A stretch of DNA of 64,000 bases from Bispira polyomma (taxonomy: Eukaryota). The notes below the pieces were generated by a model. That model worked only from the letters and a program-made list of their open reading frames with translations, made no database searches and was not told the origin of the DNA. Within the stretch, counting starts at the first letter, position 1. Each line of letters starts with the position of its first letter. Positions 10,751 to 62,133 of the stretch are shown piece after piece. The stretch is from assembly GCA_965649765.1 (NCBI GenBank), contig OZ287756.1:50344001-50408000 (forward strand). The letters are read 5' to 3'. A program made the translations under genes and the position numbers.

Positions 10751-11423
10751 TAAGTTTCTTTTAAAATGACTTGGTTGCAGGTGTAGTATGTTAAATGTGA
10801 TTTATCAGGTCATTATCTTTAGTCCAGGTAATGTCGAGTCTGCTATAGGCAACTGTTAGTGCTATAATTTATGTTCTATTGTATAGACGAATACATCTTG
10901 ATATTACAGTATGTTTCTGTAACAAACTAATTTTAAATTATTTTGTACAATGTTCGCCATTTTACAGATATGAATTTAGTTGCGGTTTATGTTGCTTTCA
11001 ACAGCTTGGTTCTCATTACAATGGCCGGATTTGATGGTTAGAGTAACCAGTTTCAAAATACTGTAAAACACCAACCAATGCCAGGTGCCTTACAGGGTTT
11101 CTCAGATGAGGGAGTGAACAAGATTTAAACCAACATTGGTGAGAGACCAATGATTAATGGCACGCGCTTCTAACCACACCTGCCAAAATAATTTTTTTAG
11201 TGCATATAACATGCGTTGGAGGCATGTTATGAAGACATAACATTTGCAAGGGGGGGGGGGGGGGGGGAAATAGAAAAACAACCTTCCAGGGAAAGACTCT
11301 TTCCATTCCTTTATTTTACTGCTGTCAGTTCTTGCAGTGGTTTCTCCGCCCACCGCTTGAATATGTAATATATAAATAATTACAAAAAGACATACCCGTG
11401 TATATATAATATCTTTTTTTATT

Positions 11424-12722
11424 ATGTGCCGTCACCAATTTTTTGACTTGCAAAATACCGTTTACAAGCAAGCCGCTTTTGCATTAGACCACGATGAAAG
11501 AGAAGGAAGTAACAGTTCTCACCCGGCCACCAGAGGAACTATTTTACATAAGTATAACGGTGACATTTTAAATGAAAATGCGGTAGGTATGTACAACCCC
11601 CCAAAACTGAAAAGTATTAACCCCGGCAGAGTTTTTGCACCACGCGCACCATATTTTAGCTGTCGACCCGATGGGGTTATGGTGCTCGATTCCATGTATG
11701 CGGAAGAAGATTTTGCAAGTTATGCTCTGGATAAGATGAGTAAGTTAGGCCACGTCACAAATAACCAACATGGGGAAGAACAATTTATCCACGATTGTTC
11801 TGTAAACCAATATACACCGGGGGTACCATACTTTATAAATGAAATTAAATCTGCACAAACCGATCAGGCTGTATTATGTCGCGATCTTCAAGCAGAGATT
11901 ATGGTCTCCCTAGATGACACATTGGTCGAGTACGCGTCGGAAGCAACCGATCATAGAGATGTGTCTTGCGTTATATTTGATGGGGATGAAAATCCAGCGA
12001 CGCGTAAAATACTATTATCTTATCTTGACAAGGCTTTTAGTCGGGCCAACTGGTGGGGAAACAAAAAAAATAAAGACGGTTCTATTAATATAGAACGAAC
12101 CAAAAGAATGACTATTAATGGAACGGTTCATTCGAAAGAAGAGTACAGCAGGTTTTTTATTCAGGCCTGTAAGATTGCGCCCACTGAGGTAATGGAAGAC
12201 GCACTAAAGACGATCCCTATGAAGAAGGAGTTGTGGAAGAAAGGCTCTTCTATGTTTAGAGAGGGGGATACAATTTGGGAAAACATGGATACCTTAAGAT
12301 CCACACTCGGAGGGAAGTGTTGCATCACTTTGTATGACCCCAAGAATAGGTATAAAAATATACCCCGTTATAAAATGAAGCTAGCGGCCTCCCCCTATAC
12401 ATTGGGTTTAAATTCTCTATTCAGAAGCACCACCCTTCTACAGGCCCTCTGTTACCGACATTTAAACCACAGCATGAGATATTTGTTTACGGCCGTTTTT
12501 TGTTTAAAAAATGTAAACCCAAAAAAGCAGGACCACGCCATGGCTTTTCAAGTGACTTGGGATCTGTGTTACAACGATCAATTGTTGGACAATGTTCTCA
12601 TAAACAACGCCGAGAAAATCAAGCTTATATCTGCGAGGAATATTGCACCGATTTTGGTAGACAAGAAGTCTTTATGTATAAGGAGCGGGGTGAATTTGCG
12701 GTGTCCTCCAAAACAAAGATAA
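11424..12722 (+). CDS. PD-(D/E)xK nuclease of the YqaJ/lambda-exonuclease/viral alkaline nuclease type, 432 aa (possibly 5'-truncated)
   Basis: HPATRG, PGRVF..PYFSCRPDG and NEIKS motifs in the expected order; late Q..CY motif (LLQALCY). Confidence 0.6.
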   Translation: MCRHQFFDLQNTVYKQAAFALDHDEREGSNSSHPATRGTILHKYNGDILNENAVGMYNPPKLKSINPGRVFAPRAPYFSCRPDGVMVLDSMYAEEDFASYALDKMSKLGHVTNNQHGEEQFIHDCSVNQYTPGVPYFINEIKSAQTDQAVLCRDLQAEIMVSLDDTLVEYASEATDHRDVSCVIFDGDENPATRKILLSYLDKAFSRANWWGNKKNKDGSINIERTKRMTINGTVHSKEEYSRFFIQACKIAPTEVMEDALKTIPMKKELWKKGSSMFREGDTIWENMDTLRSTLGGKCCITLYDPKNRYKNIPRYKMKLAASPYTLGLNSLFRSTTLLQALCYRHLNHSMRYLFTAVFCLKNVNPKKQDHAMAFQVTWDLCYNDQLLDNVLINNAEKIKLISARNIAPILVDKKSLCIRSGVNLRCPPKQR

Positions 12723-13395
12723 TACAAAAAACCTCAATGTGTGTTCCAGAAAGACTCAAACCTAAAACGAAGAGAAATATAACAAACATTTGTTTTTTTT
12801 TAAAGATGTACATAGCCGTGTTTTTTTGTTGTGAACAAAAAAAAAGTACTATATATATGTGTGTGTGTATAAAAAAAAAATACCATTCATTCATATAACC
12901 GAGTCTTCTTTTATGTTAACCAATGGAGACATTATTAATTTGTGTGAGAGCTCAAATAAAATCTTTGCTTCCTCATATTCTTGTTTGTTTGCTACCAATC
13001 CAAAAAAATTGGCCCCATAACATCACTCATCTTTAAAAGAAAGAATAAATAAAGTCTTTTTTTCGTTTTTTTGGCTCTTTTTTAATTTGAGATAAAAGGA
13101 GCTATTAAACAGCTGCTGAGAGCTCTTGGTTAGACAAAAAATGTATAGTGGTGCTGCTTTGTGGTGAAATCACTCGTTTTTTTGGGGGGATCATCCACAA
13201 TAAAGCCCTTTTTTTGTGTTAGTGATGAGCTATAATGTTCGTTCTCAATTGTTTTAAGAAGAAAACCGGGTCTGACCACCTGTTAAGGTTTTCGACTTCA
13301 GTTCTAATAGACACATGTCCTATTTTAGGTTCGAGACCTTTTTTGTTAAAAAAAAAATGGAATTTGTTCTTTTAAAAAAAGTTGTATGACGGGTA

Positions 13396-13480
13396 TTGTA
13401 AATGAACCCGTAGCCAAAAACCAAAATAAGGGTCTACACATTATATGGTGTGTCTTGGTGTCTTGATTGTCTTGATTTTC

Positions 13481-13529
<49 letters not shown>

Positions 13530-13625
13530 TCTAGAAAAAAAACAAGACATTCAGGACACCAAGACACCACACATAATGTGTGGAACCTTATTTTGCTTTT
13601 TGGCTACGGGTTAATTTTTACAACC
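13396..13625. repeat. Imperfect palindrome (~90-bp arms) centred on (AT)~20
   Basis: ACCCGTAGCCAAAAACCAAAATAAGGGTCTACACATTAT...TCTTGGTGTCTTGATTGTCTTG at 13406-13474 is inverted at ~13540-13611. Confidence 0.9.
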
Positions 13626-14045
13626 GCACACAAAACACCTAACGGATCAATTAAGGTACTTGAAGAATTATAGTTTTTTTGGGGGTAACCGTACTCTTAC
13701 TTCTGTTTGTTTCATTAAGGGGTAGTCGATTTATACCATAAGATTTCTTTTGTAGTAGAATTTGTGGTTTTAATATATAACCGAGCAACATATGAATAAA
13801 AAAAATGTTATACTCATAAATTTGTTTTTGTTCAATGCTATTATTCCCCATAAAGGATGAAGGTTAAAAAACAAAACAATTCGAATGCATGCCTCGAGTA
13901 GGCAAAAATAAAAACAGTAATAAAATAATTATATTAAAATCCGTAAGATTTACATTTATTGAGTCACAAAAAATTGTACAAACATTAATATCTGTATGAA
14001 AACCGTGGCTATTAAATGTTTTTTTTGTAACCTAAAAAAAGAATA

Positions 14046-14906
14046 TTAAAAGGGTCCTTCTTTAAGATTCTGGATGTTTTTAACGAGCGCATCACACTTT
14101 TGTTTGAATGTCTGATCTGGTTTGAAATGAAGACACCTAAGTTTCATCATCCACATGTTTTGCCGCATCAAGCTATCAACCCCGCTGTTTACTGTCCCAT
14201 CCTTGTTTGGTGTACACCACTTCCAAGTTCTCTTACATATTACTGTAGAACGTTGAAGCGTTTCCTCTTCTTCATCCTCTGAATCATCGGGTAGTCCGTC
14301 CACATAATCTTGATCCACTATACTGATTACAGAAAGTCCGTGGTGTATTCCATAGGTGTTTAGTAGATGGTCAAAATGAGTGCTTTCTTTTGGGTAGGCT
14401 GATTTTAGATTACGAAGGTGAAATATGTCAATGGGTACCACGATGTAGAGGGCCCAGGGATGTTTGCGGTGCATCAATTCCGCTTTGACTTTAATCTCAA
14501 AAGATGTGATCATCCTCTCAAACAATTGTTCAAAGTTCCTCGGTTCAATAGGGTTATCGTCGTACTCGGACAGATGCATATAAACGTTATCCAATTCACT
14601 ATTTATGTTTAAACTATATTGTAAAGCCGGTAATGCTCGCGATGTTGTAAGCTCGCTGTAGCCATTTAGAATAACAACTCTTGTGGGAATTACTGCTAAG
14701 TTTTGTATTTTTAGTTGCGCCTCTGGTGCTTGCACGTCAGTACTTGGATGCGGTCTTTTAACACGCAGCAGCAATTTTGGAGTCCCCGGCGGATAAGGAC
14801 CAGTGGTTGCTGGTATTCTTGTTTGCACACCTAAACTGTGTGCCTTCATTGGTTTTAAAGTCATCAACACCTTTGGGTAATGTGGGTTTTTTCCACCCAA
14901 ATCCAT
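14046..14906 (-). CDS. Hypothetical virus-like protein, 286 aa (paralogue of 18190-18866)
   Basis: Intact ATG-to-TAA ORF with downstream AATAAA; aligns by eye with the 18190 ORF. Confidence 0.75.
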   Translation of the reverse strand: MDLGGKNPHYPKVLMTLKPMKAHSLGVQTRIPATTGPYPPGTPKLLLRVKRPHPSTDVQAPEAQLKIQNLAVIPTRVVILNGYSELTTSRALPALQYSLNINSELDNVYMHLSEYDDNPIEPRNFEQLFERMITSFEIKVKAELMHRKHPWALYIVVPIDIFHLRNLKSAYPKESTHFDHLLNTYGIHHGLSVISIVDQDYVDGLPDDSEDEEEETLQRSTVICKRTWKWCTPNKDGTVNSGVDSLMRQNMWMMKLRCLHFKPDQTFKQKCDALVKNIQNLKEGPF

Positions 14907-14945
14907 GTTTTTTTTTTAAAAAAAATATGTCACGTTCACTTTTTT

Positions 14946-15209
14946 ACATATAATGTGTAGACCCTTATTTTGGTTTTCGGCTACGGTTTCATCCTATAAC
15001 CACGACAGAAGGTCAATAAAATTCTTTGACGAGCACCATAAATAGAACCGAAGATATAAAATAATAGATTCCTTCGGCTCTTTCGATATACCACGATGGT
15101 AGGTAACTTAAGTTCTATTACGGGTTCTCTAAGGAAACCGTAGCCGAAAACCAAAATAGGGGTCTACACATTATATGTGGTGTCTTGGTGTCTTGATTGT
15201 CTTGTTTTT
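14946..15209. repeat. Inverted pair of the same motif around a ~145-bp spacer (MITE-like or hr-like)
   Basis: ACATATAATGTGTAGACCCTTATTTTGGTTTTCGGCTACGGTTTC (14946-14990) is inverted at 15134-15178 and extends as GGTGTCTTGGTGTCTTGATTGTCTTGTTTTTC to ~15210. Confidence 0.9.
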
Positions 15210-18187
15210 CATAATTTTTTCTCAACACCTATTTTGGTAGACTCTGCCATCATCATAAGACCTAATTTTTTTGTAGCTTTAAACCCGCCTCCAAAAACTG
15301 CAGACCAGTCACTTTTTGGCAGGCTGTAACTGGGAACCGTGGTGCATATGATGGTGTCGTCTAACATCAACACCGACACACCCTTGCTCCATAACTCTTT
15401 TTGGTTTTTTTTAAGAGACCAGTTAATATAATCGTTATTTTGAATAGCCACCCCCGAGTAAGCTTTAAACATCTCTTCCATATGTGCATTCACAAAAGGT
15501 CCATTACCGCCTTTATTAAAACCCATTCTCTGTAACATTTTGGTCACTATAGTATGATTATTTCCACCCAGCAAGGCGATCTTTTGTACGGCCGGTTTAA
15601 ATTGAGAATACTTGGCTTCTCTTTCAATGGTGTATTTAAACAAGTCATAGTACCAACAATCATAAAATATAATCTCTAATGATTTGGTACTAAATAGATT
15701 TTTATCTATTTCCAATATCAAATTGTTTAACTGAACCATTAACACACTCAAGGTTAATCTTATTTCACCTCCTTCCAGAGTACTACACGTTATGAAGGGA
15801 TCCGACTTATTTTCACCCCATTCAAGCTTCTTTTTTGTTGGGTCGTAGGAGATGTAAGCCGACAAATTCTTATGGATATCTAAATATCTCTTTAAAAAAA
15901 AAGCTCGTTTAAAATTTGGGGAATCCGATCTCACATCTATGTATTTGTTTCTAAAGACTCGTGCTATGTCTTGAACGAAAGACATACCGTCTTCGGCCGT
16001 TTTATACATCTGAGGGTCTTTTAGTGTTTGCTCGGTTTTGACCAATCCAAAGGCGAAGTAATTTAAAAATTCTAAATAAATCAAATTTTTAGCACCCACT
16101 GGAAAAGCACCCATCGAAAAGATGTTATTGGCGAGGAGTGTCTTAAAATTGTATTTGATTTCTAAAAAACACGGTTTTTCCCAAGCTCGTTTCGCGGTTT
16201 TGGAACCACAGTTTAATGTTTTTGATTTGTTGGTGTAATCCGCTAAGATATGTTGTATCAATTCGTGTAAGTTCATTTTTTTCGTTTTTCCTTTCCAATA
16301 ATAAAAGGACAGTCTCGATAATGGCCCATACCCCTTACCGTCCCCTTTGTCTTTAGGACGCAGTCTTATATTTTGGTCTAGGGGTGCCATTGAATCGGTA
16401 TCCGCCATACATATTTGGCCAGCCACCCTCGATTGGGTAAACCATTCACAAGCTAGCCTATTTTGTTCTCGGGCTATATGAGTAATGGTACCCCCGACTA
16501 CTTTGGATAGGCAAGAGTATACCCCAAAGATACTGTTATTGTTTTTTTTCATGGCTTGCTGTAAGGCGTCGTACAGAGCATAAGTGGGACTTGATTTGTT
16601 CGATCCCATTTGTTTTTTAAAAGCAGTTCTTCTGTCGCTCCACAAAGCACACATTTGATTCGCCACGGCTTTAAAATAACTTTCTCTCATGTAATAGGCC
16701 CTGTAGAATATTTTGTGGTATTTTAGCATCCAGTCTCTAAAATTTAAATGATTTTTTTGAGAATGTTCTGCTCCTTTATAGCATACATCCGGCCGAGTAT
16801 TTGGGACATCCACCACATAATACTGGTCTGGTTTTAACTGGGTGAGGGCAAATTCTTCACTCACCAGACTAGTCAGACATATATTCATGGCTTGCATAAG
16901 AGAGGGATACTGCGCATTAAAATCATCCAATCCGCTAGTAAAATCAGAGTACAAACCTTCTACGTTACTAATAGTTCTACCGGCTCTAGATTGTAAAGCA
17001 TTAAAATAATCGTTTTGTAAATCACCCTTACTATTGGAATAGAAATTGGTATTTTTGTTTTTCTCTTCTAGATCTAGATCACTCGTACCCGTAACGTCTT
17101 CTTCTAACATCTTATAAAATTGTTCTTTTTCATAAGGGGTAGCAATTTCTTCTAAGGTAAAAACTTTTGTTTTCTTTTTCTACTCTGATCCTTTCTTCCG
17201 GTGTTTGGGCGTCTCTCAGAGCGATTCTAATATCCGTGCAACATTCCCCATAGGCACAACAACCCGACACGTCTTCCGGATTGTATTTAGTTCCCGGGAC
17301 ATAAGCTCCCTCGTACCATACATTGTTGGCTGGAACCGAACAAATGTTTCTTCTTCACATAAAAGCATACATCAGATTTAACGTCATTTTCATCCCGTCT
17401 CCCCCAATAGCTTTGCGCACGGGAGCAAATTGAGAATCCGCATCCATTATACAACTGAGGGGGCACATTTGTTGTAAATCTAATAGGGCGGTGATAATAG
17501 TATCCGCCACGTTGTAGGCCACGAATTTATGGATACAGCCCGTTCTCCATGTTGCCGTCAAATTAGCATAATCCACGTCTTGGTCGTGTATTTTTCTGAC
17601 ACCCAGGTGCAATCGAGCACTGCAATCTAACGTCTTATTTCTCGGTTCTGGATCGTTAAGTAGCTGCTGGGGAATAGGTACTTTATCCATAACGTCTCTA
17701 TTTCCCATAAAATTAAACAAGTATGTCTCTACTTCTCTAGATCCTTCTAGGGGTTTGATAACCAAGGTACGGGTATCTAGTTCTTCTTCTTCTTCAGCAT
17801 TGTATAGATCTTCGTTGGTTTTCATCTGATCCAGGCTTTTGATATATTTTTCCTGCCAGCCAGTTTTTGGTCCGCAACGGTATTTCCTTTTTTCCGAGAA
17901 TATTTAATAACGCACGCGTCCGGTCTATATCCAAACTGTAGAGAAAGCTTCGTCCTACGCCTGTCTCTAAACCACGAGGGGTCATTCTCTTTACTTTTTA
18001 CACTCGCTCCTTTGGCTCCCGTGGTTTCTAAACCATGATTTAACATGAGTAAATCGAACTTGGTACCGTTGTAATGGGTTAAAAATTCTGCACCCGTTAA
18101 AGCAAAATAATCCATAAAGCTTTCTATCATTTTTTTTTGGTCCGTAAATTGAAGTAACCTATATCTCTCTTCAAAAGGAGAGGCCAC
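15209..18187 (-). pseudogene. polB: Family-B DNA polymerase of a large DNA virus; frameshifted and 5'-truncated
   Basis: ExoII THYNGTKFD (17822-18187), ExoIII AYNVADT (17355-17825), then DFNAQYPS, KKNNNSIFG and MADTDS (15209-17110) in canonical order. Confidence 0.85.
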
Positions 18188-18189
18188 CT

Positions 18190-18866
18190 TTGGAATATCC
18201 TAAACTAGAAGAAATAACAATCAACTGTACCAGACCACAGCAGACCACTATCATTCATGGTCTTAGTGAATTAACCCAACGAGAGTCTTTACCTCATTTA
18301 AAGAAAGCACTCTGTCAGGATGGAAAAAGAGATACGGTCGGATACTTCATCCATATAACAGGAGCTCGCAACGGGGATCTAGAGCAAGTTTTTGAAAGGT
18401 TGAAGGGAGCTTTTGAAAGAAAAACTGAAACTCATTTCAAGCGCTTCCAACTCCAGTGGGAGCTATTCTTTGTGGTACCCGTTGACATATTCTGGATAAA
18501 CCCAAAAGAATATCGGTGTCCAAGTAAGAAGATTGAAGAATTCGTTGGTGCATTAGAAAAAGGTGGAATAGATACCGTGTCAATGATTAACGTGCTAGAC
18601 CCCAACTACCACAAGATGAGTACGCGCATGAAATAGCTGGGCTAAAACGACAGGAAAGCATAAAAAGGTGTCTGGGTTCTCAGCCGTACCACCGTAGAGA
18701 AGATAGTACTAGAACAGGGTGTGCGAGAGCGGACAAGCTTTTTACTGACCACAGCTTCATAAGCAGCTTGAGGTGTTGCCACTTGTCAAAGATAGGAGTC
18801 GAAAGCGCGTCGAGGAAACTGGTGAAGGTCATCAACGCCCTTGAGCCCCAAACCGACGAGATGTAA
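18190..18866 (+). pseudogene. Paralogue of the 286-aa protein; 5'-truncated, one frameshift near 18620
   Basis: IIHGLSELT..SLP/LEQVFER/WELFFVVPVDIF versus ILNGYSELT..ALP/FEQLFER/WALYIVVPIDIF; the shifted frame gives SLRCCHL...KLVKVINAL versus KLRCLHF...ALVKNIQNL. Confidence 0.75.
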
Positions 18867-18883
18867 AAAAAAGATGGTGTCAT

Positions 18884-19216
18884 TTGACTGACTTAAAAAT
18901 GTTCTACTATGAACTAATTGAATGTATAATTAAAGTGTTGGTAAATTTTTCAAAAGACTTAAAAAAATTGAGCGTTAATATACTGAACGAGACTCATGTG
19001 TACGCCTCTAAAGCCGATGAACTATTAGCAAAGGCAACCGACTTCAAAGATTTGCAGCTAGCAGACATTAATGGTTTGGCGGATAGCCTTGGTTCTTTAA
19101 GTTTCTTAACCGATACACCGGCAGAGCTCGGTATAGCGGGTGTATCAATTTTTATGATTGTAGCAGGCGTCAATTTTGGATTGGTTTTATATACTTGTAT
19201 TAGATCAAGAACTTAA
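18884..19216 (+). CDS. Small or partial protein with a C-terminal transmembrane helix (possible envelope-protein tail)
   Basis: Helical segment, then LGIAGVSIFMIVAGVNFGLVLYTCI and a short basic tail RSRT. Confidence 0.4.
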   Translation: MTDLKMFYYELIECIIKVLVNFSKDLKKLSVNILNETHVYASKADELLAKATDFKDLQLADINGLADSLGSLSFLTDTPAELGIAGVSIFMIVAGVNFGLVLYTCIRSRT

Positions 19217-19550
19217 GAAAAATCTGACTGTATAAAATCTAGTAAAAAAAGAAAAACGATGTCTATATCATACTTAATATTGTTGTAATATCTTGTACCA
19301 TAACAGGTTTTAAAAGACTGATTTTTTTTGTAATCTTTTTATGCATGTTAATCATCTCGTGTTCATTTTAGTTGGGTTGTCACTCTTTTTTTAAAAAAAA
19401 AAACAAAAACTAGCTAGAAATCTGTTCGGGTCAAGAGGGTTTTTTTTCAAAAAAAGAGTTCTGGTCCTTTTGTTGCCCAAAATAGCCCGCAATAGCATTT
19501 TGGTAACTAGCTAGTGAAGCGGGTGTATATATATATATATACATGTAGAA

Positions 19551-19623
19551 AAATGAAAAACAAGACAATCAAGACACCAAGACACTACATATAATGTGTA
19601 GACCCTCATTTTGGTTTTGGTTC
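19551..19623. repeat. Fifth copy of the dispersed viral-block motif, next to (AT)8
   Basis: AAAATGAAAAACAAGACAATCAAGACACCAAGACACTACATATAATGTGTAGACCCTCATTTTGGTTTTGG. Confidence 0.9.
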
Positions 19624-21715
19624 ATAAGAAAGACCCGATAGGATCGAGCCTCACTGGAAGCGGGTAGTTTTAAAGTAAAACATGATTTATTGTCATCTTA
19701 AAGATTACGGGAACCACTGTAACTGCTAAAAAAAATAAGAGGGTTTTTGGCAGGAGGGAGTGGCTTAGAGTGTGTCTAGTATAACTGGTAAACAAAAAGT
19801 ACAGGAAATATATACTGGAGGGGGGGGGGGGAGGGGTCAACAAACTATGGGTTGGTGGAGCCTGTATCAATGCACTGGCACTTTTTGAGACCACCATTTA
19901 GTAAATTGAATGCCATCCCAGTACTAGCTAGTTTGATGGGCTTAGTTGTTTTTTCTGTTCAATATTTGGTTAAATGCTGCATTAGAACTATTTACCTATT
20001 ATTGAGTTTTTAAATAAAAGAAGATATATTTTAACTCTACAATAAGGTCTTTAAATCTTTGAATTGAGTGTTCAGAAATACAGCCAAGTGTCCATTTCAT
20101 ACCAAGCATGACCGTAAAAGGCTCTTGCAAAACTATGAGGACTTTAGTTGTGATCTCTATACAATGAACAGCTACATCAGTCAAACATTTGAATATAGGT
20201 GTCTCTATTTTAAACTTGATGGTATAACGAAGGTCACCACAGAAAAATTCTTATCTGACACTTATAGGACAACAAAGCAAGGATGCAAGTATATTTGACA
20301 ATACCATCATAAGCAATTTCAAAACCGTCTTCGAAATGTGGTAAAATACTCTCAAGAGGAAAAGTGGTTCAGGTAGACCTCACAGAATGTTTTTTCAGTG
20401 AAAAAAATTGCAGCCTGGAGAAACAAGTGTCACCATTTTACCTGCATTTTGCAAGAAACATTACTTAGAAAGCAGGGGGATTTGGGAATATAGTATAACC
20501 TCTGTTATTTAAAGAGATTTCTAATGTAATTTATTCACACAATAAATTTTGCATCTATCGAAGAAATATTTGGTTTGTAAAAATGACCAAATATCCTGGT
20601 ATAATTCTTTATCCCCTGCCAAAGATGTTGAAGGGATACAGGAATTGTCATGGTCCATAAGTCTGCTGTACCATAATTTGCTAATTACAAATGATAAGTC
20701 TATATTTGGGTAAATTATGACTATATGAAGTAGCAACTTAATGGGTTGTGTGCATCAGTCTTTTTTATTCAGGGAAGATTGCCAGGATACGCAGTGGTAA
20801 GCCCTAAAAGACTACATTTTGGTTTCCACAAGTGGCAGTGATTACATATGTGGCATATGTTTTTAGATCTTACACAGTGTCAGATTTGTTCTTGATTATT
20901 GATGTATAGCATAAAAACGATTGGTAGGGTAGTTGTTTTTTTTGTTTGAAACTCACTTACATTAAGCAGGTGATAACAAATATGTGAATTTGCTTGTTTG
21001 TTTGGATGCCTTTGTTTTGTGTAGTTGGCAAACATGGGATATATAGGGCATCTTGTTAATTCTTCCTAACATTAAATATGTGGAAAACAGAAGCTAGATA
21101 ATATAGCTTGTGTTAAGACGATTTTGTTGAAAATACAATGATGTACTATTATCCTTTAAAATATCTTGCCAATATTTTGTATTGATACATGAACATATGA
21201 TTCCATCCAACTTTCTGCAAGTTTCTGTATTCACAGATTTGCATTTGGTACAGTTAAGTAAATCAGTATCTAATTAAAAGAAGATTTTTGAATCAAACTT
21301 TCATATCAGATTAAGAAGGGAGGGTATAAATAGACTCCAGAGGGTGTAGAGGGCCTTACAAACTGCCGACAAAATGACACAACACTACAGTGGATGATAT
21401 GCAACTTAACGACAGTGATATACACAACAAACAGAACACCACACTACATAATCCACATAAAGAATACATCACCACGGCAAAGAGGGGGGAAGTATAAGAC
21501 AATAGAAGAATTAATCAATCTAGGCGATGACACAATGTGTTGTAGAGATCTCTCCAAGTTAAATTGCATTGTCGTGTAGTGGAGTGTCATGCAGGGAACA
21601 CTTGGGGATACAGATCTGGCTAACCTTTATACATCATCTTGTTTTTATTTTAATGTAGTGTTGTGTCATGTAGTTAGCAGTCTATAAGGCCCATAAATGA
21701 TGTTCTCTCAAATTT

Positions 21716-27246: not shown

Positions 27247-30200
27247 GACTGCATGCTTTTCTAATGAAAAACTTGATTCAGTGGCACAAAGTTTATTACC
27301 AGAGGAATATGGTCATCTGATTCCAGTTAAATGTACTGGCGATGGAAACTGTCTGTACAATGCCATGTCCATATTAATTTCTGGTAAATTAATAGTTAAG
27401 TAATTTTTTATGTTAGCTAGTGTGATGTTTAATGTCAGTATTGTTGCTGCCTTTATTAATTCTGCCATATGTTATTGTTTGGACTTGCCTGTATTTGTGT
27501 GTAGCAGAAAAACTGATTTTTTTTTCATGTGGAACAATTATATCAATATTCTATTATCAAACATAACAACGTTTCTGCTGTTGACAGGTGTCTCGCTTGT
27601 CTCATAGCATCCATTTCTGTTGCCCAAATATTTATCAAACATTTTAATCAAGGTCTGTAACTACAAAATTTAATATACTTGTACATTATTACTTATGTCA
27701 CAGCCATTCATGGCTATCCGTCAATCAGATGATGCATTTTTCTTGCCTGAGACTGAACCTCTGGAAATACACATAGATTTAGCCACTGTGGCCTAGTGGT
27801 TAACATACTCATTTAGGAACACAGAGGAGCTGGGTTTGATCCTAGTATGGGTTGACCAGATACACAAAGATACATAGTGGCTCAGATGACCACTCAAATG
27901 ACAGTCCTCTGTCATTAGGGCCTATCCCCAGTGGCAGGCTACAGATCCTTTTAGATGTTGATAAATTGTCACCCCAAGCCTCACACTTCAGGTAGGCGAA
28001 TGGTAGTTAACTGATGCTGGTTGGCTGTTTGCAGTCAAAAATAGGTTAATTAGTGCTTTGACTACCAGATAAAAGCATATAACTGTACTGAGTATCAATT
28101 TGAATAGAATAAAATATTTGCATTAGGAGCTTCTATCCTATAAGGCATACTACAGTATTCATATTTTGAAGTGTGAGTGTAAAGATTTACCACACATAAT
28201 TTGACTTCCTTTGGCCTTGAAGAAATTGCATGTTCATACACAGTACCTAACTCTATGTTTGGCATATTAACGGCTATTATATTAAGATTGAAAAAGGTTT
28301 TGTGAAATAATATTTACATATGGGAATAATTTGAGATGCTTTGGAGCTAAAATTTGAGTTTAGTTTCATTGTAAGTTTGGTATTTTGTCTTTACCTAAAG
28401 TCTATATATGGGCTATAGGTATTTTTTTCCCCGTACAACCAGATAGGCGGCCATCCAGGCAGCGTATGCTTATGTTTGTTTGGGCTAGTTCTTAGAAACC
28501 GAAGTAAGTTTATATTTAGTACAAGTATTTTTAGGGGGTTGTAGTTATGCAATGTCATGGTCTGATTTCACCCAAAGGCTGGGGGTTTGACATCCTTACG
28601 CTATTTTTTTTTTACAAAATTCAATATTCTTTATCATAACATAATTGTGTCATTTAAAATCATGTACTAATTGCCTGACTGGTAATCTGTCTTAGGTGAT
28701 GAATCCCTCAGTGACTACCTTCGCAAAGAGAGTTCAAAAGAACTGCAAACAAACTCAGAGCATTATGCAAAATACATAAAATATCATATTGAGTGTAACA
28801 ACCAAAATGGTGTTTTTGATGATGAAACATTGTTTCATTCAATGCTTTCGGAAGACACAGTAAAGATATATGAAAATGTGAAGAAAGACAAAATAAAACT
28901 GCTACAAATTGAAGTTGATCTATCCATAGTTTCTGGAAGGTGGAGTACGTTTATCAACTTATTCCCCTTGAGCACAGTTTCCAGAAGGAATTTATGTTCA
29001 GTTTACCCAACCAAAAATCCACCATTAAGATCGGTCTACAATTCTACCATAACCTCAAGGTGCAAGACTACACAACCTGATGCCCATATATTGTGGTCCA
29101 GAGATGGCATGTTAGAGAAGGGAATGTACACACCAAATCATTTTGTGCCTTTATTACCACTAACTCTACCAACAGTTTTAGATTTAGATGATAGTTTTGA
29201 TGAAATATTGTCTCAACTAGATTTGGCAAATGTGACAATGGATTCCTCAATCAGCCTGCTTACACCTGACATAAGTGTAAGTAACACTGATTTAGCCCAA
29301 CAGGACATGACCAACATTCATGAGGAAAATAACAAAATACAAAAACCTAATGAGGATCAAACTGTTCAACATGAACGCATCAATACTGGAGATGAGAGCT
29401 CTACAGAGGATCAAACTGTTCAACATGAACGCATTAAGACCCAAAATGAAAACTCTACTGAGGATCAACCTGTTCAACATGAACACATTAATACTGAAGA
29501 TGAAAGCTCTACTGAGGATCCAACTGTTCAACATGAACGCATTAATACTGAAGATGAAAGCTCTACTGAGGATCCAACTGTTCAACATGAACGCATTAAT
29601 ACTGAAGATGGTAGCTCTACTGAGCATCAAACTGTTCAACATGAACGCATCAGTACTGAAGATGAAAGCTCGAATGAGCATCAAACTGTTCAACATGAAC
29701 GCATCAATACTGAAGATGAAAACTCTACTGAGCATCAAACTGTTCAACATGAAAACATTATTACTCAAGATGAAGGCTCTACTGATGATCAAACTGTTCA
29801 ACATGAACACATCAATACTGAAGATGGTAGCTCTACTGAGGATGAACCTGTTCAACATAAACGCATTAATACACAAGATGCAAGTTCTACTGAGGATCAA
29901 AATGTTCAACATGAACGCATCAGTACCCAAAATGAAAACTCTACTGAGGATCCAACTGTTCAACTTGAACACATTAATGCTGAAGATGAAAGCTCGAATG
30001 AGCATCAAACTGTCCAGCATGAACGCATCAATACTCAAGATGAAAATTCTACTGAGCATCAAACTGTTCAACATGAACGCATTAATACTGAAGATGAAAG
30101 CTCTACTAAGGATCAAACTGTTCAACATGAACGCATCAGTACCCAAAATGAAAACTCTACTGAGCATCAAACTGTTCAACATGAAAACATTAATACTCAA

Positions 30201-33200
30201 GATGAAGGTTCTACTGATGATCAAACTGTTCAACATGAACACATCAATACTGAAGATGGTAACTCTACTGAGGATCAACCTGTTCAACATAAACGCATTA
30301 ATACACAAGATGCAAGTTCTACTGAGGATCAAAATGTTCAACATGAACCCATCAGTACCCAAAATGAAAACTCTACTGAGGATCCAACTGTTCAACATGA
30401 ACACATTAATACTGAAGATGAAAGCTCGAATGAGCATCAAACTGTTCAACATGAACGCATCAATACTGAAGATGAAAGTTCTACTGAGCATCAAACTGTT
30501 CAACATGAACGCATTAATACTGAAGATGAAAGTTCTACTGAGCATCAAACTGTTCAAGTTGAACGCATTAATATCCAAGATGAAAGTTCTACTGATGATC
30601 AAACTGTTCAACATAGATGCATTAATACCCAAGATGGAAGCTCTACTGATGATCAAACTGTTCAACATGAATGCATTAATACCCAAGATGAAAGCTATTC
30701 AGAGGATCAAACTATTCAACATGAACCCATTAATAACCAACATGAAAGTTCTACGGAAGATCCAATTGTTCAACTTAAACGCATTAATATCCAAGATGAA
30801 AGTTCTACTGATGATCAAACTGTTCAACATGAATGCAATAATACCCAAGATGAAAGCTCTACTGAGGATCAAACTGTTCAACGTGAACGCAATAATACCA
30901 AAGATGAAAGTTCTACTGGTGATCCAACTGTTCAACATAAACGCTTTAATACCCAAGATGAAAGCTGTACTCGTTATCTAACTGTTCAACTGGAACGCAT
31001 TAATACTGTAGATGAATGCTCTACTGATGATCAAACTCTTCAAGATGGATGCATCAATGCCCAAAATGAAAACTTTACTGAGGTTAAACGGCTCAAAAAG
31101 AAAAGGATCAGTATCCAAGATACTAAAACCAAGAAAAAGCTGTTTAAAAGTGTTACAAAATCAGTAAGAAATAATTGTAACACAAAGGTTAAAGAAAATA
31201 AATATATCAATGTTGCAAGTGTTTTTAAGAAAGGCCAAAAAAGACAAATATCTGAAAATGATTGTAGTTTAGATATATTGGCAAAGGCATTAAAGAGGAA
31301 AAAAACTATATTAAATGACACAAGAAATGGTCTAGAATCATCTGACAATGACTCAGACATTAGCTTGGACTCTGATATTGAATGTGTTCAATCAGATGAT
31401 GATGATGATCCAGCTGAAACATTTACAGACAGCCTGACATGGAAAAGTAAATGTTTTCCAATGAAAAAGCCCAAATTTGCTGGTCCGGCTCCAGGAGTGA
31501 GCAAAGATTTTGTTTTGGATAAGGATGCAAAAGAATTAGACTTTTTTTTCAGTTTTTTTCCAGAAGCAATGCTTTCTGAAATGGCCAAAAATGCAAATAA
31601 GTATGTACCAATCTACAGTACATTGCATTCCAAATTATCAGATGACCCATACATTGACAAGGACTTCAAACCTATAACAGAAAGTGATATCAGAGCTTTC
31701 TTTACCTGCAGGATGGTGATGGGGGTAACAAAACTACCTCATACTGATGATTATTGGTCCACAGATCCAGCCATGAGGAATAATTATATCAGCAGAATAT
31801 TGTCACGAAGCAAGTATAGGCAAGTAAACCGCTACTTCCACATTAATGATCCTACAAAAGACCCTGCACGGTTAACCAACAGAAAGGCCAAAACTGAAGG
31901 TATGGCCAATGATCCACTGTATAAAATTCGCCCATTGCTTGACAGCATCAGAGCACAATGTTTGAAGTTATATAATCTGAATCAGGAAATATCAGTTGAT
32001 GAGGCAATGATTAAGTTCCATGGTCAACATTTTGGCACTATCGGAGCACCACATAAACCCGCCAAACGAGGGTTTTGCATCTTTGCATTAGCTGATGGGC
32101 ACAATGGTTACTTTTCCAACTTTGAGGTATACCTTAGAAAAAAAGAAAAAGAAGTGGGTCTCACTACTCGTGTTGTAGAAGACCTGGCAAGACCATTCTA
32201 CAACAGGCAACATATAATTTTTGTGGACAAATTCTATACGTCAACGAATTTAGCATTGTCATTATTAAATAAAGGGACCCAGTTAAATGGATCATTTAAC
32301 AAAGCCCGTAAAAATTGGCCAGAGGATTTGAAGCCAAACTGCAGTGTCCGAAAGAAGGTTGATCCTGTCAGAACATTGGAAAGAGGGCAGTGCATATACA
32401 GACAGACAGAAAACGGAAAGCTAGTAGCATGCATATGGAAAGATTCTTCCTTGGTCTACAACCTAAACACATGCTACAATATCAATGTGAAGATCACAAA
32501 TGTTAAAAGAAAGACCAGGTTAAATGGAGCATGGATTGTGGATGATCTCCCCTGTCCTGAACCCATCAAAGAGTTTAACAGATTTATGGGGGGAGTAGAC
32601 CAACATGACCACCTGAGAAGTAGTTACACTGTTCAAAGAAAAGCAAAAAAGTGGTGGCATTATTTTGCCTGGTTTGCGATTGACATATCGTTGATCAATG
32701 CATATATACTATGGAAGCTGACCCACAAAGGGACTCACAAAACTTTCAGTTAGAGGTGATTTTGAAATATAAGTTGAATTTTGTTTATCTGTTTGACTTC
32801 TTTGCTTGTTACACTGTCTTGCAGGAAATTTTGAAATTTATTTATTTTTGGTTTATTATTTTTGTTTCTGTTTTTACAATTTCAAACATGCATAGCCAAA
32901 TACAGTTTACAAGTTATTTTGTCATCTTTTTCTTCAGAAATGGTGTCTTATAAAGATTGCAGAGCTGGGGCCATATTCGCAAAAGGGATCAGTGAAAGTG
33001 AAAAATTTGAAAACAAAAATTGGCTGAGCAAAAGATGAGCGAACAATAAGCTCAAATGTTTAGATCAGATCAAATTTGGTATTCACTTTAAAGTTGAGTT
33101 GATTTTTCACTCATCTTACAATACTAAATATTGCTTGAAATTTGTTATATAAGCTATTATATGTCTTTATAATCGTTTGTCCAGCCAAAATAAAGCCTAG

Positions 33201-39648: not shown

Positions 39649-39967
39649 ACAGTCAATGATAAAATTGCCGCATTACTTATCTTTTATATGCCAATGTGTA
39701 ATTTTGCTATGTTGCCAGTGCATTTTTTTTTTAAATGTGCTAAATTACACATGGCCAATGCAGCACTCAAATTTTTATACAGCCAATTACACATTGGCAC
39801 TCCTGCAGACTTATATATGAAGCACTATCAAAAATCACTTTAATGACGCTAAATTACGGTTTGGCACTCCAGCAGCATTTCATATATGGTTTTTGTAAAT
39901 TTGACTACAAACATGGCAAATTACGGTTTGGCACTCCGACAGAGATAGGTCACTGGCAGTGTAAAGG

Positions 39968-42900
39968 ATATACGTTTGTATGTAACAATTCTTTCAAATT
40001 ATTACTATTAAAATGTTTTATTTGAACGTCATGTAGGTCGATACAGTCTAATAATATATGCCTGACTGTATCGGGACAATGACATGGAATGCACCAGGGC
40101 TTATCCTCACCTTTCAACAGATAACTATGTGTAAAATAGGTGTGTCCTATACGGGCTCGAGTAATAACTATTTCTTCCCTACGAGATAAACCCGTCCAAA
40201 AATTAAAAGCTCCAACTGTAGGGTTTATTTGAAATAGTTTGTTATCAGGACACGCATTCCATTGGGCTTGCCACTTTTGTTTAAAAACACTATTTACATT
40301 AACTTTGAAGTCTGTATAGGGGACTTTCAAGTCTAAAATGTTAAAATTCAATGCTTGTTTAGCAAGCTTGTCTGCCACTTCATTGCCCTTAATACCTACA
40401 TGACTAGGAACCCATGCTAAAATTACTTTTTTGTTCACTGACAAACACGGATTAAAAACCTTTAAAATATCCTGTAAATAGGGATGATCACAGTTATTGC
40501 CATCAATGGCTTTCAGACTAGATAGAGAGTCAGTGAATATAATAAACTTTAACCCCTCACAATGTCTAATAATGTTAAATGCCATTTTCAGAGCCTGCAA
40601 TTCAGCTGTGAATATGCTAGCATTGCCAGGTAACTTGGGCACTGAGGCCATTTGATGTTGCTGCTGCAGCTACTTTGTTTTTATCTTTAGAACCATCAGT
40701 ATATATTGCCCTGTGATCAGAATAACAATTGATCAACTGGCTAAAGAGACTTTGAAATAAATAATCGTCTCCTATACATTTTTTATTTTGTGCCAAGTAG
40801 TAATCAATGTGTGGTTTTTGTATAGTCCAGGGTGGGTCTTCTGGCAATGACACAGTCTGAATTAAATCCAACCGAGGACAACAGCAGCTAAGTCTGCCTT
40901 AATACGATGCCCAAATGATCTTATAGCTGATGGTTTATTTTCATACTTATCAATGTACTGGGGGTTATATACTACTTCATAGGTTGGATTTTGAGGGTTA
41001 CTTTTCAACTTTATTGCATACTGAACACACAGTTTATGAAATCTCAGGTATAATGGTGGTTCATTAGCTTCTACATATAAGCTTTGCATTGGAGAAGTCC
41101 TGAAGGCTCCTAGGCATATTCTTAAGCCCTGGTTTTGAATGGGTTCCAATTTTCTCAAATAAGACTTACGGGCAGAGCTAAAAACTGCACAACCATATTC
41201 CATCCTTGATCTAACAAAAGATCGATACATCCTTAGTAGTACACTTCTGTCTGCACCCCAATCCATTTTTGAGACTACTTTTAATAAATTCATTGCTTTG
41301 TCACATTTCTTACGCACATAGTCAATATGTGCTTTAAAATTAAACTTGTTATCAAGTATAATGCCAAGAAACTTTGTTTGTGTTACTACAGGTATCTGAG
41401 TGCCATATAATGTCAATGTAGGATCTAGATGGAGTTTTCTTTTGTTACAGAAGTGCATGCATACTGTTAGTTTTAGAAAATTTAAAACCATTTTCATCAG
41501 CCCATTTTTCAATTTTATTCAGGCATAGCTGTAATTGTCTCTCTATAGAGGCCATATTATTTGAGCTATATGTTATTGAGAGGTCATCAACAAAGAGAGA
41601 CTTTTCAAAGTTGGATGGAATAATATCACTTATGCTATTGATTTTTAAAATAAACAAAGTAACAGCAAGGATACTTCCTTGAGGAACACCCATTTCTTGA
41701 TTGTGCATATCTGAATAAACTGATCCTAGACGAACTTTGAAAACTCTATTGGATAAAAAATTCTGAATAAAAACAGGCATTCTACCACGAAGCCCTGCCT
41801 TATACAAATCTCTGGCAACACCATATTTCCAAACAGTATCATATGCTTTTTCTAGATCAAAAAATACTGAAACTACATGGTTGCCTTTTAAAAATGAATC
41901 TCTAATTAAAGATTCAAGTCGAACTAATTGGTCTGTTGTCGTTCGACCTTTTCTAAAACCACTTTGATGTACACTTAAAATGTTGTTTTTTTCAAGAAAC
42001 CAAACCAATCTTGCATTCATCATTCTTTCCATGGTTTTGCACAAGCAGCTCGTCAAAGATATGGGACGGTAATTGGACGGGTTTTGTGGGTCTTTACCAG
42101 GCTTAGAAATGGGTACAATAGTTGCTTCTTTCCAGCATTCAGGGATTTCACCAGTTATCCATATTTCATTAAATATGTCTAATAGTACCACAAGTGAATC
42201 CCTTGGCAAATGTTTAAGTAATTGATAATGTACTTCATCAGGCCCTGTGGCTGTATCATGAGACTTTTTTAATGCATCTATCAATTCTGATATATTGAAC
42301 TCCATGTTATAATTTTCTTGGTTTCTTGATGCAAAATTAAGCTTTTCTTTTTCAGCCTTTTCCTGATATTTCTGAAACTTAACAGAGTAATTTTTACTGC
42401 TGGAATTTTTGCTTATTTCTTCTGCCAACATATTTGCTATATCTCCTCTTTCTGTTATTTTACTTCCATCAGTATTTACTAGATGTCTTACTGTTGTATT
42501 ATTTTGCCTCCCATTTATTTTCCTAAGCATTTCCCATACCTTTTTGGCTGAAGTATTTGTATTTAGTTTTGATATATATTCCTTCCAGGAGTTTCTTTTA
42601 GCTGCTTTAATTACACTCCGAGCCTTAGCCCTTCAGTTTCTATATTCATTTATATTTGCCGATGTTGGATTTATTCGGCATTTATCTAGGGCTTTCTGAC
42701 GAGCTTTTTGGACCCTTTTACATTCATCATTAAACCATGGTTTAAAACTACCAGTGGACTGTCCTGAGGATTTAGGTATACTTTTTGTGGCTGTGTCATT
42801 CAATTTACTCATAAAAACAGGAAACTTGTCACTCAAATTTTGAAATGTATGTCTATTAATTTCAAGTGAGCAATGTAGCTGATATTTTACCCAATCAGCC

Positions 42901-43610
42901 TTTTTAATGTTCCAACGGGGTACATTGTCTCTTGGTATATTTTTAACTATATCGATTAGAATTGGGAAATGATCACTACCACATTGGTCACTGTGAACTT
43001 GCCAAGTAAAGTCAAGGAATGTTGAACTGGAACATAATGATAAATCTATTGCAGTTAAAGATCCTGTAGCTGGATGTAGATATGTAGGAGAATAGTCATT
43101 GAGTAAACAAACACCAGATAAGTCTAATATATGCTCAATCTTTTCTCCTCTACTATCACAGTGATTTGAACCCCACAAATCATTATGGGCATTAAAGTCA
43201 CCTATTAATAAAAATGGTTGTGGCAGTTCATTGACTAGATTATCTAAGTTTTTCTGTGTAACTGTACAACTTGGTGGAATATATATACAACATATAGTTA
43301 TGGTTTTGTGTAGGGATACATTAACTGCTACGGCTTGTAACTGTCTGGTTAAGGAGATTACTTCATGTGGCACACCTTTTTTAACAAATAATGAGCAACC
43401 TCCAAATACTCTTCCATTAACTTCTGAAACACTAGTTTTGTAATAGTGATCAAAGCCTCTCAATTTGTAATTATCATTGTCTTTAAAATATGTTTCCTGC
43501 AAAGCTAAAATGTATGGACTAAAATCAGAAATTAAATGTTTAATTTCTTCAAAATTTGGCTTATAGCCACGACAGTTCCACTGGATAATGTGTTTTTGGT
43601 TTGGTTTCAT
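39968..43610 (-). pseudogene. LINE ORF2: APE endonuclease - reverse transcriptase - RNase H (several frameshifts)
   Basis: QWNCRG, LQET, GDFNAH, SDHFP; NYRPISL, QSGFR, DLEKAYD, GVPQGS, FVDD; YTDGS, AELQA, TDSLS, WVPSHVGIKGNEVAD. Confidence 0.95.
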
Positions 43611-43619
43611 TATTTAATT

Positions 43620-44853
43620 TTATTTACAATTTTGACTCCGAGGTCTTCCTCTATTATTTTGTGGTGGTAGATCAACCATCATTTCATTATCATCCTCACC
43701 ATCTGAGTAAAGAGTATCTTGTTTATTATATTGTTTAATAAGATCATTTGACCCTTTTGAATTTCTATTTCTATTGAGAATTACCTTACTCTGGTTATTT
43801 GTCACTTTGACTGATTCATTTTGTGATTTGGTTGCTTCAGTTTGACATGAAGATGTAACTTTGGTTAAAACTACTTTTGAATCCTTTTCATTTGTTGCTT
43901 GTGGTAATTTTTTGGGACTTTTTAATGTTTCTGGCCAAGTCATATCTGTCTGAGTTTCTTTGGAGCAAAGTGTCACAGATTTTGTTACTTTGGCATATGA
44001 AGTTTTTACATTATTAAATATTGATATTTGTTTCTTGGCTTCTGTATAAGATATACCTCTTTCAGTTTTGATTTTTTGGATTTCTTTTTCTTCTTTCCAT
44101 TTTGGGCAAGTTTTGTCGGTAGCTGAATGATTTCCCTCACAATTAATACACTTGGCATCATTTTCGCATTCATGTATATCTGTATGATTCTCACTACCAC
44201 ATTTTGGGCACACTTCTTTTCTTCTGCATGTAAATTTTGTATGACCAAATTTTTGGCATCTGAAGCACCTCATTGGATTTGGAACAAACACTGACACAGG
44301 CACTCGCAAATAACCCACCCTAATGTATTTTGGTAGAACTTGGCATGCAAAAGTCAATATGAAAGTCCCAGTACGCCTTCTTTCGCCCTCTCGAAAAATC
44401 GTTATTCGGTCCAACTTTACAACACCCTCAGATTGTAAACCTTCTAATATTTCATCATCTGCACATTCTTTAATATCTGGACATCTTATCACTCCTTTCT
44501 TTGTATTCAAAGTATTGTGAGGGGTTACGCTTATTGGTATAGAGTAGTCCATTGTCAAGTCCAATTTTGTTGTTTTCAAAAGTTTGTCACTTTGCTTTTC
44601 TTTATCAACCTCAACTAAAATATTTCCTGATCTTAGTTTTTTTTATGTTGATAGGTTCAGTGCCCAAAACAGATAAAATGGCCTTATTAACAGCGAAAGG
44701 TGAGAGTTTCAGTAGGGAATTTTCTGTTTCAGAACCTTGCAAAAGTAAAAATCGAGGCCAAGAACAAGCAATACCAGTTTCCAAAGTCATAAATCCTGGG
44801 TCATTCGTGGGTCGAGTCCTTTTCCTTCCATCCGTTTGATTTTGTGATGCCAT
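43620..44853 (-). pseudogene. LINE ORF1 (gag-like, three zinc knuckles); frameshift near 44620
   Basis: KLSPFAV, PHNTLN..KGVI, PNPMRCFRCQKFGH, CPKCG..H, CINCEGNH...C. Confidence 0.9.
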
Positions 44854-45380
44854 GGTTAAATAGTTAATATTCACTGCCAATGCTCTCCACCCACCCTTCG
44901 AGCCCAACAAGGGGATACCGAATTGTGTGGGGCTATGCCCAGCACACAGGTACCAGAGATACATTGGCAGTATACTCAAAGCCCACTAAAAGTGAACCTC
45001 AATTGACCTGTTAAGCAGCCGCCTTCTAGATACTCCAAACAAAAGCACAAACCAGATACCAGCAGAATAAAACTAACAAAACAACAATATAAACATTCAC
45101 CAACAATGAACCATCACTTAATTTGGAGCACTAGGGCTTGGCACTACCAGCCGATTGGTTAAGCCAGGCCATCTTAACCATCCGTCTAAGTGAAATTGAG
45201 GCCAAAGCTGTGTATTGCCTCCTCAATGCCGCAGCAAGGTATCGGCTCAACAACCAGGACCCTCTCTTCCACTGACACGGACCGCAACCCACGGCAAACA
45301 GGTTGCCCCCAATTAGTCGCCTCTTACGACACGCTGAAGGGTACGTTGGGCCTATTCTACTTCCCCGGACCCACAGGGGG

Positions 45381-55678: not shown

Positions 55679-56368
55679 TTATTCATCATGCAGAATCATT
55701 TTCAAATAGCCACAGTCTTTAGAATTTTTCTTGTGTTCATCCAGAGGTTCGTCTAAATAATCCCAGGAATGTAATATGACAGAACACCACAAACACTGAC
55801 ATCTATCGCCTAACCCTGTATACATGAACCCGGCTCTAGCTAATCTCTCTGGTCTAACTATGTTGCTGACTTTCCAACCTCTGAAGCTTTCCAGTCGGTT
55901 TTGGTACAGCTTGTAATTTCCCCTTTCTATATACTTATTTCTACTAGGAGACACCGTTTGTACATACTCACAACTGGGGTTCTGTTTGGCATGTAGTTTA
56001 AGCGGTTCATCGAAATAGTTCCAGTTCTTGAGCTGCATATGACACCAAGGACAGATGCAGTTGTCTCCATACCCGCTGTACCTGAATCCTCCTCTGGCTA
56101 GTTCTTTAGGTGTGATACCAATCCCTCTGGGCCAACCCTTGAAACTATCCAGCCTATTGTAGTAGAGTTTGTAGTCCAGCCAATCTCGACACATGCATAA
56201 GGATTCTTCAGTATACTGGAAATTTTGGAACTTATTACTAAGATCCTCCATTTTATCTATATCGTCCCCCCTCCTTCTAAAACTTGAAGATGATGCTGCC
56301 ACCACACAATCAGACTCATCTTGTCCTGTCCTTCTGCCATTTTTACTAGTTGTAGTTGTAGTAGCCAT
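55679..56368 (-). CDS. iap: Inhibitor of apoptosis with two BIR domains and no RING, 229 aa
   Basis: Two RLxSFxxW...LARxGF.Y.G.GD...CxxCx16Hx6C repeats. Confidence 0.92.
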   Translation of the reverse strand: MATTTTTSKNGRRTGQDESDCVVAASSSSFRRRGDDIDKMEDLSNKFQNFQYTEESLCMCRDWLDYKLYYNRLDSFKGWPRGIGITPKELARGGFRYSGYGDNCICPWCHMQLKNWNYFDEPLKLHAKQNPSCEYVQTVSPSRNKYIERGNYKLYQNRLESFRGWKVSNIVRPERLARAGFMYTGLGDRCQCLWCSVILHSWDYLDEPLDEHKKNSKDCGYLKMILHDE

Positions 56369-59390: not shown

Positions 59391-59414
59391 TGTGATACTT
59401 AATGCAATAACCTA

Positions 59415-62109: not shown

Positions 62110-62133
62110 TAGGTTATTGCATTAAGTATCACA

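Follow-up and report, generated by a model that had tools for sequence, protein, structure and literature searches.

The locus described here raises the question of which virus left a block of genes in the genome of Bispira polyomma, and by what route that DNA entered the chromosome. The window, by which is meant the whole 64,000-nucleotide stretch that was analysed, covers positions 50,344,001-50,408,000 of contig OZ287756.1 (G000:C9) in assembly GCA_965649765.1, which comprises 1.035 Gb in 75 contigs. The host genome is animal-type, with exon-split polymerase genes and depleted CpG; haemocyanin, tried as a host marker, gave no match, a result of little weight. A preliminary description made by eye had reported a block composed of an intronless nuclease, a family B DNA polymerase (PolB), a pair of paralogues, and a transmembrane (TM) piece, which it ascribed to a divergent herpes-like and perhaps malacoherpesvirus-related relic whose family could not be assigned by inspection. 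Each of these parts was found in the window and the herpes-like origin has held up, but the family can in fact be named. The block is very probably an endogenous viral element of ~8.3 kb, derived from a divergent and hitherto undescribed member of the malacoherpesvirus group (Herpesvirales) and inserted in the germ line where a host repeat is rich in AT. As a virus it is inert, its polymerase being truncated and broken and its other genes partial.

The polymerase fragment spans approximately residues 540-1245 of a 1910-aa relative, so that ~530 residues are missing at the front and ~650 at the back, and it is read in three frame segments (~18,208-17,830; 17,831-17,226, with an in-frame stop inside; and 17,149-16,154). 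The closest sequences are unnamed family B polymerases of 1,726-1,910 aa, the best of which are 34-38% identical; solved cellular polymerases reach 21 bits at most. Among 124 pattern matches in the viral_contigs collection, one was confirmed (E 8e-46), and lies in a 207,439-bp record taken as ostreid herpesvirus 1 (OsHV-1), where a 1,878-aa polymerase, 33% identical to the window protein in the core, is followed by open reading frames (ORFs) of 209, 762, 423, and ~1,203 aa. The identification rests on the length of that record, which PMC11092209 gives for OsHV-1, and on the sizes of ORF100-102, which agree with the OsHV-1 table in the accessible part of PMC5994699. The motifs DFNAQYPS, KKNNNSIFG, and MADTDS, which had been singled out as unusual, are all present but prove typical of the OsHV-1 group, since OsHV-1 itself carries DFNSQYPG, KVNANSIFG, and MADTDS, the last of which also occurs in an element from Capitella. 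Cellular polymerases alpha, delta, and zeta are marked instead by DFxSLYPS, YGDTDS, and introns, and Polinton/Maverick elements by a protein-primed polymerase (Pfam DNA_pol_B_2), an integrase, and terminal inverted repeats. Neither source was retained: the host polymerase genes, on C1, C5, C7, and C10, are exon-split and separate in the tree, while the Pfam domains of the fragment are restricted to DNA_pol_B and its exonuclease and no integrase is found in the block. Domains and tree thus agree with the initial judgement that the polymerase resembles neither that of a Polinton nor host Pol alpha/delta. Pol delta-like genes occur twice in the host, once at G000:C5:75.26 Mb and once at C7:10.15 Mb.

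A frameshift-aware phylogeny, which had been proposed as a check, was calculated from the uninterrupted 301-aa core (22 rows, 410 columns), and the best tree keeps the window polymerase apart from cellular ones. Four host polymerases (Pol delta/alpha/zeta-like) and two outgroups fall outside a group of 16 rows (support 100/100) that unites the window with OsHV-1, the Capitella element, and unnamed sequences. Within this group the window is sister to P0001 and P0015 (94/92), its nearest relatives by both tree and identity, which are intact and of full length, in contrast to the window copy. The exact position is loose, and the window polymerase may be the deepest branch of the OsHV-1 group.

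The nuclease, which is indeed intronless, provides a second gene. Its predicted model (predicted local distance difference test score, pLDDT, 65) has as its best fold match OsHV-1 ORF76 (Q6R7F3; E 3.2e-18), which in a library of predicted viral structures precedes the next row by 13 orders of magnitude and is followed by an abalone herpesvirus protein and herpesvirus UL12-type nucleases. Against the PDB, the first seven rows are occupied by SOX of Kaposi's sarcoma-associated herpesvirus (KSHV) and the alkaline nuclease of Epstein-Barr virus (EBV), and the PDG..ExK motif is aligned in nine of nine rows. Sequence searches returned ten relatives at E up to 0.001, none of the eight checked bearing a name, and an Atlas search gave a YqaJ lead only (0.90). 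The fold and a PD-(D/E)xK-type motif are therefore held in common with the herpesvirus alkaline nucleases (herpes simplex virus UL12, KSHV SOX, EBV BGLF5, and salmonid herpesvirus 1 ORF45), although sequence identity is ~10% and the window copy is shortened at its N-terminus. Taken together, the modelled structures suggest that ORF76 and its unnamed relatives are the malacoherpesvirus counterpart of the herpesvirus alkaline nuclease, for which an alloherpesvirus structural homologue has recently been shown (PMC13030845). This assignment was not found in a limited literature search and may already be known. OsHV-1 ORF76 is highly expressed and listed as uncharacterised, and was earlier tied to nucleoporins.

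The third gene lies elsewhere in the assembly. DNA searches located related pieces at C9:59.52-59.53 Mb (locus B, ~10 kb) and at C13:34.55-34.58 Mb, where there are two clusters of ~14.5 kb each. Genes common to the loci have open frames, 64-93% protein identity, and ratios of nonsynonymous to synonymous substitution (dN/dS) of 0.34-0.69. Locus B contains a short polymerase remnant whose place is just upstream of the stretch preserved in the window, and C13 holds a P-loop ORF with a weak deoxynucleoside-kinase match and a broken major-capsid-like gene (E 2e-12 and 6e-10) that is 25% identical to OsHV-1 ORF104, identified as the major capsid protein in the portion of PMC11565193 that is available. 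In the first C13 cluster ~8.5 kb of closely spaced genes survive, with host elements inserted alongside, and the second contains a diverged version of the palindrome described below. A linked capsid or terminase gene had been suggested as a further check; the capsid-like gene on C13 is tied to the window by the shared palindrome and scraps, but no terminase was found. The capsid gene emerged by local tblastn only, OsHV-1 protein searches of the assembly having been empty for capsid and terminase alike. DNA searches with the other clusters yielded no further loci; a host repeat crowded one of these searches, in which 39 of 3127 candidates were scored.

The accessory genes present include homologues typical of the lineage, namely the ORF76 family and a glycoprotein of ~700 aa, the tail of which accounts for the TM-bearing piece noticed at the outset (18845-19216). 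Of seven related metagenome loci, four encode this glycoprotein-like protein close to PolB. All seven are JGI (Joint Genome Institute) contigs of 7-69 kb (L052-L058) with malacoherpes-like polymerases beside glycoprotein-like genes, one of them with a weak herpes primase match, and from their sequences they would seem to be a further unnamed malacoherpes-like branch. The two-member family also stands: its ORFs (14046-14915, minus strand, and 18148-18636, plus strand) are 31% identical over 131 aa (E 9e-16). Member 1 has no match in Pfam, NCBIfam, or PDB, and the family protein model (pLDDT 45) finds generic alpha/beta matches only, the best (Z 9.4) tied among unrelated folds. A degenerate P-loop kinase was considered on by-eye likeness and dropped as unsupported.

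Several results weigh against assignment to the malacoherpesvirus group. The window polymerase has a terminal branch of 1.19 and is at most 38% identical to any relative in the core, and an approximately unbiased (AU) test does not reject its placement with the outgroup polymerases (p 0.059, at a cost of 8.4 log-likelihood units). The tree was built without alloherpesvirus, orthoherpesvirus, nimavirus, nudivirus, mirusvirus, or named giant-virus polymerases. The 874-aa ORF of OsHV-1, which we take to be terminase-like, found no terminase match, but the same type of query missed the capsid gene too. Since most other ORFs of the block also have no relative, its source could have been another group of large DNA viruses (a separate herpes-like family, a nimavirus, a nudivirus, or a mirusvirus) with a convergent similarity to OsHV-1. 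This is improbable, as PolB, nuclease, and capsid are three independent genes that all match OsHV-1 proteins, the ORF76 match by the wide lead given above.

That the block belongs to the chromosome, as the preliminary description held, is indicated by its setting. The limits originally drawn at 11330 and 19660 enclose a real block but need adjustment: viral sequence begins at ~11374-11383 and ends at ~19667-19680, and 11302-11375 is host repeat. A distinct composition is apparent in CpG (observed/expected 0.88, against 0.38 and 0.45 in the flanks and no more than 0.51 in every sliding 8.3-kb window clear of the block), whereas GC barely differs (0.377, against 0.357 and 0.337). No host repeat was detected within the 8.3 kb. 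A single copy of a host repeat is split by the block: the left flank matches L085:380-771, and on the right the order is kept with L085:981-1499, a short match lying where the repeat resumes; positions 11276-11374 are matched by all eight host repeat copies compared. At the left junction ~10 nt of AT-rich sequence are common to the host and viral sides, and no target-site duplication was seen at the block.

Reads were drawn from three runs of two samples in one study. Block depth equals flank depth in all three (for X1, ~30-33 in unique block bins and 33-43 in the flanks), the right junction is bridged in each, and the point at which the polymerase gives way to foreign codons lies inside contigs of each. 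Contigs over the PolB frame breaks contain no frame-changing difference. Because contigs cross or span them, neither this internal junction nor the frame breaks are assembly errors. A joint skipping 11267-19815 was considered as an empty allele and discarded, resting as it does on 19-22 letters of poly-G. The window itself falls in one arm of an inverted duplication (arms >80 kb and ~99% identical, 78-nt spacer, centre 60726-60803) that reaches beyond both window ends and may be either a genuine giant palindrome or a head-to-head joining of two haplotypes. The mirror copy of the block differs by 26 substitutions in 8.3 kb (~0.3%), and both sets of alleles occur in the reads: of 29 read variants in the block, 22 are mirror alleles, and the remaining seven are grouped in the family gene, from whose paralogue they probably derive. 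Duplication or two haplotypes would in either case imply inheritance, not a one-off somatic event.

There are limits to this evidence that count against a germ-line insertion. The left junction is bridged in two of the three runs, by 30-39 viral-side letters only, and the three runs may represent one individual, the variants of both samples matching the two assembled arms. It is conceivable that DNA of an infecting virus was mis-joined into the chromosome during assembly, given that the junction evidence consists of short-read contigs only, that the inverted duplication might itself be a haplotype-joining error, and that a co-assembled free herpesvirus has been reported in a mollusc assembly (accessible part of PMC11092209). 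Such an artefact is nonetheless very unlikely in view of the host-level depth in every run, the contigs that cross the junctions, the frame breaks upheld by the reads, the host repeat split in order, and a truncated polymerase unfit for a replicating virus.

The inserted DNA is a rearranged mosaic and not a contiguous piece of viral genome (Table 1), because the polymerase runs into an unrelated frame, the nuclease follows a scrap that is placed elsewhere, and the glycoprotein and family member 2 are without their 5' parts. The final 314 codons of the 656-codon ORF are not polymerase; for every relative, PolB similarity ends at 16154 or no more than ~120 nt from there, and the tail has no relative in Pfam, NCBIfam, Atlas (best 0.85), or the loci compared. 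In the other loci, the scrap at the left edge is found just 3' of a different viral gene.

Table 1. Features of the viral block and of the host repeat that it interrupts (window coordinates).
Feature	Position	Strand	Remarks
Host interspersed repeat, left part, cut at insertion point	10968..11375	+	76% identity to host copy L085:380-771
Viral non-coding scrap	11374..11444	+	97% identity to C13 locus, 95% to C9:59.5 Mb locus
Alkaline-nuclease-like gene, OsHV-1 ORF76 family	11376..12722	+	Intronless open frame; N-terminal part apparently missing
Imperfect palindrome, 256 bp, (TA)n centre	13381..13636	.	Arms 128 nt, 80% complementary; candidate viral origin
Viral gene family member 1	14046..14915	-	87% DNA identity to C9:59.52 Mb copy; dN/dS 0.69
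Two truncated palindrome arms and spacer	14946..15232	.	86% identity to stretch between tandem palindromes on C13
314 codons of unknown origin, in frame with PolB piece	15209..16153	-	PolB similarity ends at 16154
Malacoherpesvirus-type PolB, internal fragment	16154..18208	-	Three frame segments, in-frame stop, both ends missing
Viral gene family member 2, 5' part missing	18202..18866	+	Weakly similar C-terminal part follows in another frame, E 0.003
Glycoprotein-like C-terminal end and membrane anchor	18920..19216	+	tblastn E 3.6e-13 to 7e-11, four loci; 5' part missing
Single palindrome arm, starts at (TA)n centre	19524..19625	-	Arm matches
Same host repeat, right part, order resumed after block	19680..20121	+	19708-19819 and 19841-20121 match L085:981-1098 and 1176-1499

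A recurrent component of the mosaic, absent from the preliminary description, is the palindrome, both arms of which hold repeated TGTCTTG units and which as a 256-bp hairpin has a folding z of -19.6. A profile built from 12 arms (one misaligned row of 13 was dropped) recognises 19 arms across the four clusters (5, 3, 6, and 5, of which the final five did not contribute to the profile) and none in the seven related-virus loci. In a genome search that skipped common words and scored the best candidates alone, 18 of 18 matches fell inside viral loci; the possibility of a host miniature transposon was rejected on this count. At least three solo arms stop at or just short of the TA run. Gene and DNA searches made without the palindrome core found no palindrome-free viral locus, and palindrome patterns run on viral_contigs gave 2 and 20 stretches, four of these 22 being weakly similar to the arm profile (E 0.0015-0.008), which was taken as chance. 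Origins of alphaherpesviruses are AT-centred palindromes with flanking initiator sites, and by its architecture the window palindrome is a candidate herpesvirus replication origin. A large palindrome between ORF49 and ORF50 of OsHV-1 is likewise a suspected origin, according to the accessible parts of PMC3623871 and PMC9836095.

Two further arrangements accompany the palindromes on C13. A tandem repeat of ~140-150 bp (L038:5450-6145; C13:34560450-34561145), a related unit of which occurs in locus B, lies beside them and could be a viral terminal or packaging-type repeat. In the second cluster, at ~23 kb from where the contig stops, a truncated 18S rRNA gene is joined directly to a viral glycoprotein-like ORF (L040:8361-10000 and L041:1-122), after which a CpG-free satellite continues up to the end of the contig.

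How might such mosaics arise? Viral DNA replicating in a germ-line nucleus would break and rejoin, often at the hairpin-forming (TA)n palindrome, to give short mosaics; the captured DNA would then already be rearranged and origin-rich, as by-products of replication or defective genomes, and host end-joining at short microhomology, without an integrase, would patch it into a broken AT-rich repeat. Rearrangement and an abundance of origins characterise defective herpesvirus genomes. We are inclined, by a little, towards this scheme of rearrangement at the palindrome before insertion, followed by end-joining capture without integrase and with the palindrome serving as origin. Two considerations pull the other way: loci B and C were first found partly via the palindrome, which biases its enrichment, and the source virus may simply have been rich in palindromes.

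The main rival to the capture of a ready-made mosaic is erosion of a longer provirus after insertion, whereby larger or whole viral genomes were integrated and later cut down and shuffled in the chromosome, the palindromes being fragile sites or dispersed viral repeats. A near-complete integrated genome is known from a lancelet (PMC12373286), the first C13 cluster retains its dense genes with host elements alongside, and the window region has since been duplicated as a giant inverted repeat. Yet the block has no detectable host repeat and its CpG is not eroded, while the split host repeat resumes directly past it, as fits a single insertion of a pre-joined piece; we therefore regard erosion as a serious but rather doubtful explanation.

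A transposon could also have carried the DNA, as in Teratorn-like elements, in which a herpesvirus is fused to a piggyBac transposon. Fusions of this type are reported in fish (accessible part of PMC5822658), and the viral stretch of locus B is joined directly to a 510-bp scrap (G000:C9:59533233-59533742) that is 97% identical to a piggyBac-like gene 9 kb to the right of the block. That gene has the low CpG of host sequence, host repeats lie between it and the block, the C13 region has no match to it, and no transposase inside the block or terminal repeats around it were seen, all of which makes this route improbable. The gene itself (28686-32753) is a transposase-like ORF of 1355 aa with a long internal repeat.

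Returning to capture of rearranged viral DNA, the four clusters were likely contributed by at least two related viruses or strains. The dN/dS values and open frames point to divergence in living viruses and hence to more than one donor, although viral paralogy could add to the differences. A bolder and tentative proposal sees in the four clusters the germ-line remains of defective genomes enriched in origins, left by at least two viruses that belong to a deep, undescribed invertebrate herpesvirus branch. If so, they would record the genome entry of a non-integrating herpesvirus, with hairpin origins as the sites of breakage and capture, and would show how the origin of an invertebrate herpesvirus is built, with repeated 7-bp units on either side of a TA run. 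Captured more than once, palindrome-bearing mosaics offer in themselves a testable idea for endogenisation without an integrase.

Other mobile elements share the window. A Polinton-like set (55679-62538) comprises two BIR domains, a weak adenovirus-type protease match, an integrase with a chromodomain, and a 438-aa ORF that is capsid-like by eye; it is cut by the centre of the duplication, and of its two integrase copies, one per arm, one is open and one split. A LINE (long interspersed nuclear element)-like element lies in pieces at 39950-44985, with gag-like, endonuclease-like, reverse transcriptase (Pfam RVT_1), and RNase H-like ORFs.

Members of the Malacoherpesviridae, as defined by the ICTV, have a TRL-UL-IRL-X-IRS-US-TRS genome of ~190-212 kb, a herpes virion, and a mollusc host; here there are only fragments. 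With OsHV-1, the Bispira loci share the polymerase motifs DFNxQYP, KxNxNSIFG, and MADTDS, an ORF76-like nuclease, an ORF104-like capsid gene (on C13), and a large palindrome of the kind suspected as an origin. The window block differs in being integrated, fragmentary, scrambled, and of low identity, in that the 35 kb of OsHV-1 compared offers no match for most of its other ORFs, and in the many palindrome copies found in these loci, where one is described for OsHV-1 in the accessible literature. Because only three complete malacoherpesvirus genomes exist (PMC12096621), a lineage no more than 38% identical in the polymerase core extends the group and ties it to the host germ line.

Endogenous elements of herpes-like type are as such nothing new in invertebrates, herpesvirus DNA having already been reported inside invertebrate assemblies (PMC5552708; PMC12373286; bioRxiv 10.1101/2025.04.19.649669). 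Among the leading results of a literature search, none described mosaic herpesvirus insertions rich in palindromes from an invertebrate. When 209 mollusc assemblies were screened at E 1e-50, an appreciable fraction of viral ORFs turned up in just one, attributed to co-assembled free virus (PMC11092209, as far as its accessible text goes), and such a cut-off probably misses matches as weak as those of the window block. The Capitella element has a polymerase in the same tree group as that of the window. BelcheriHV-1 is near-complete at ~150 kb, whereas Bispira polyomma carries four mosaics of gene scraps, each of 8-15 kb and each with palindromes, apparently from more than one donor.

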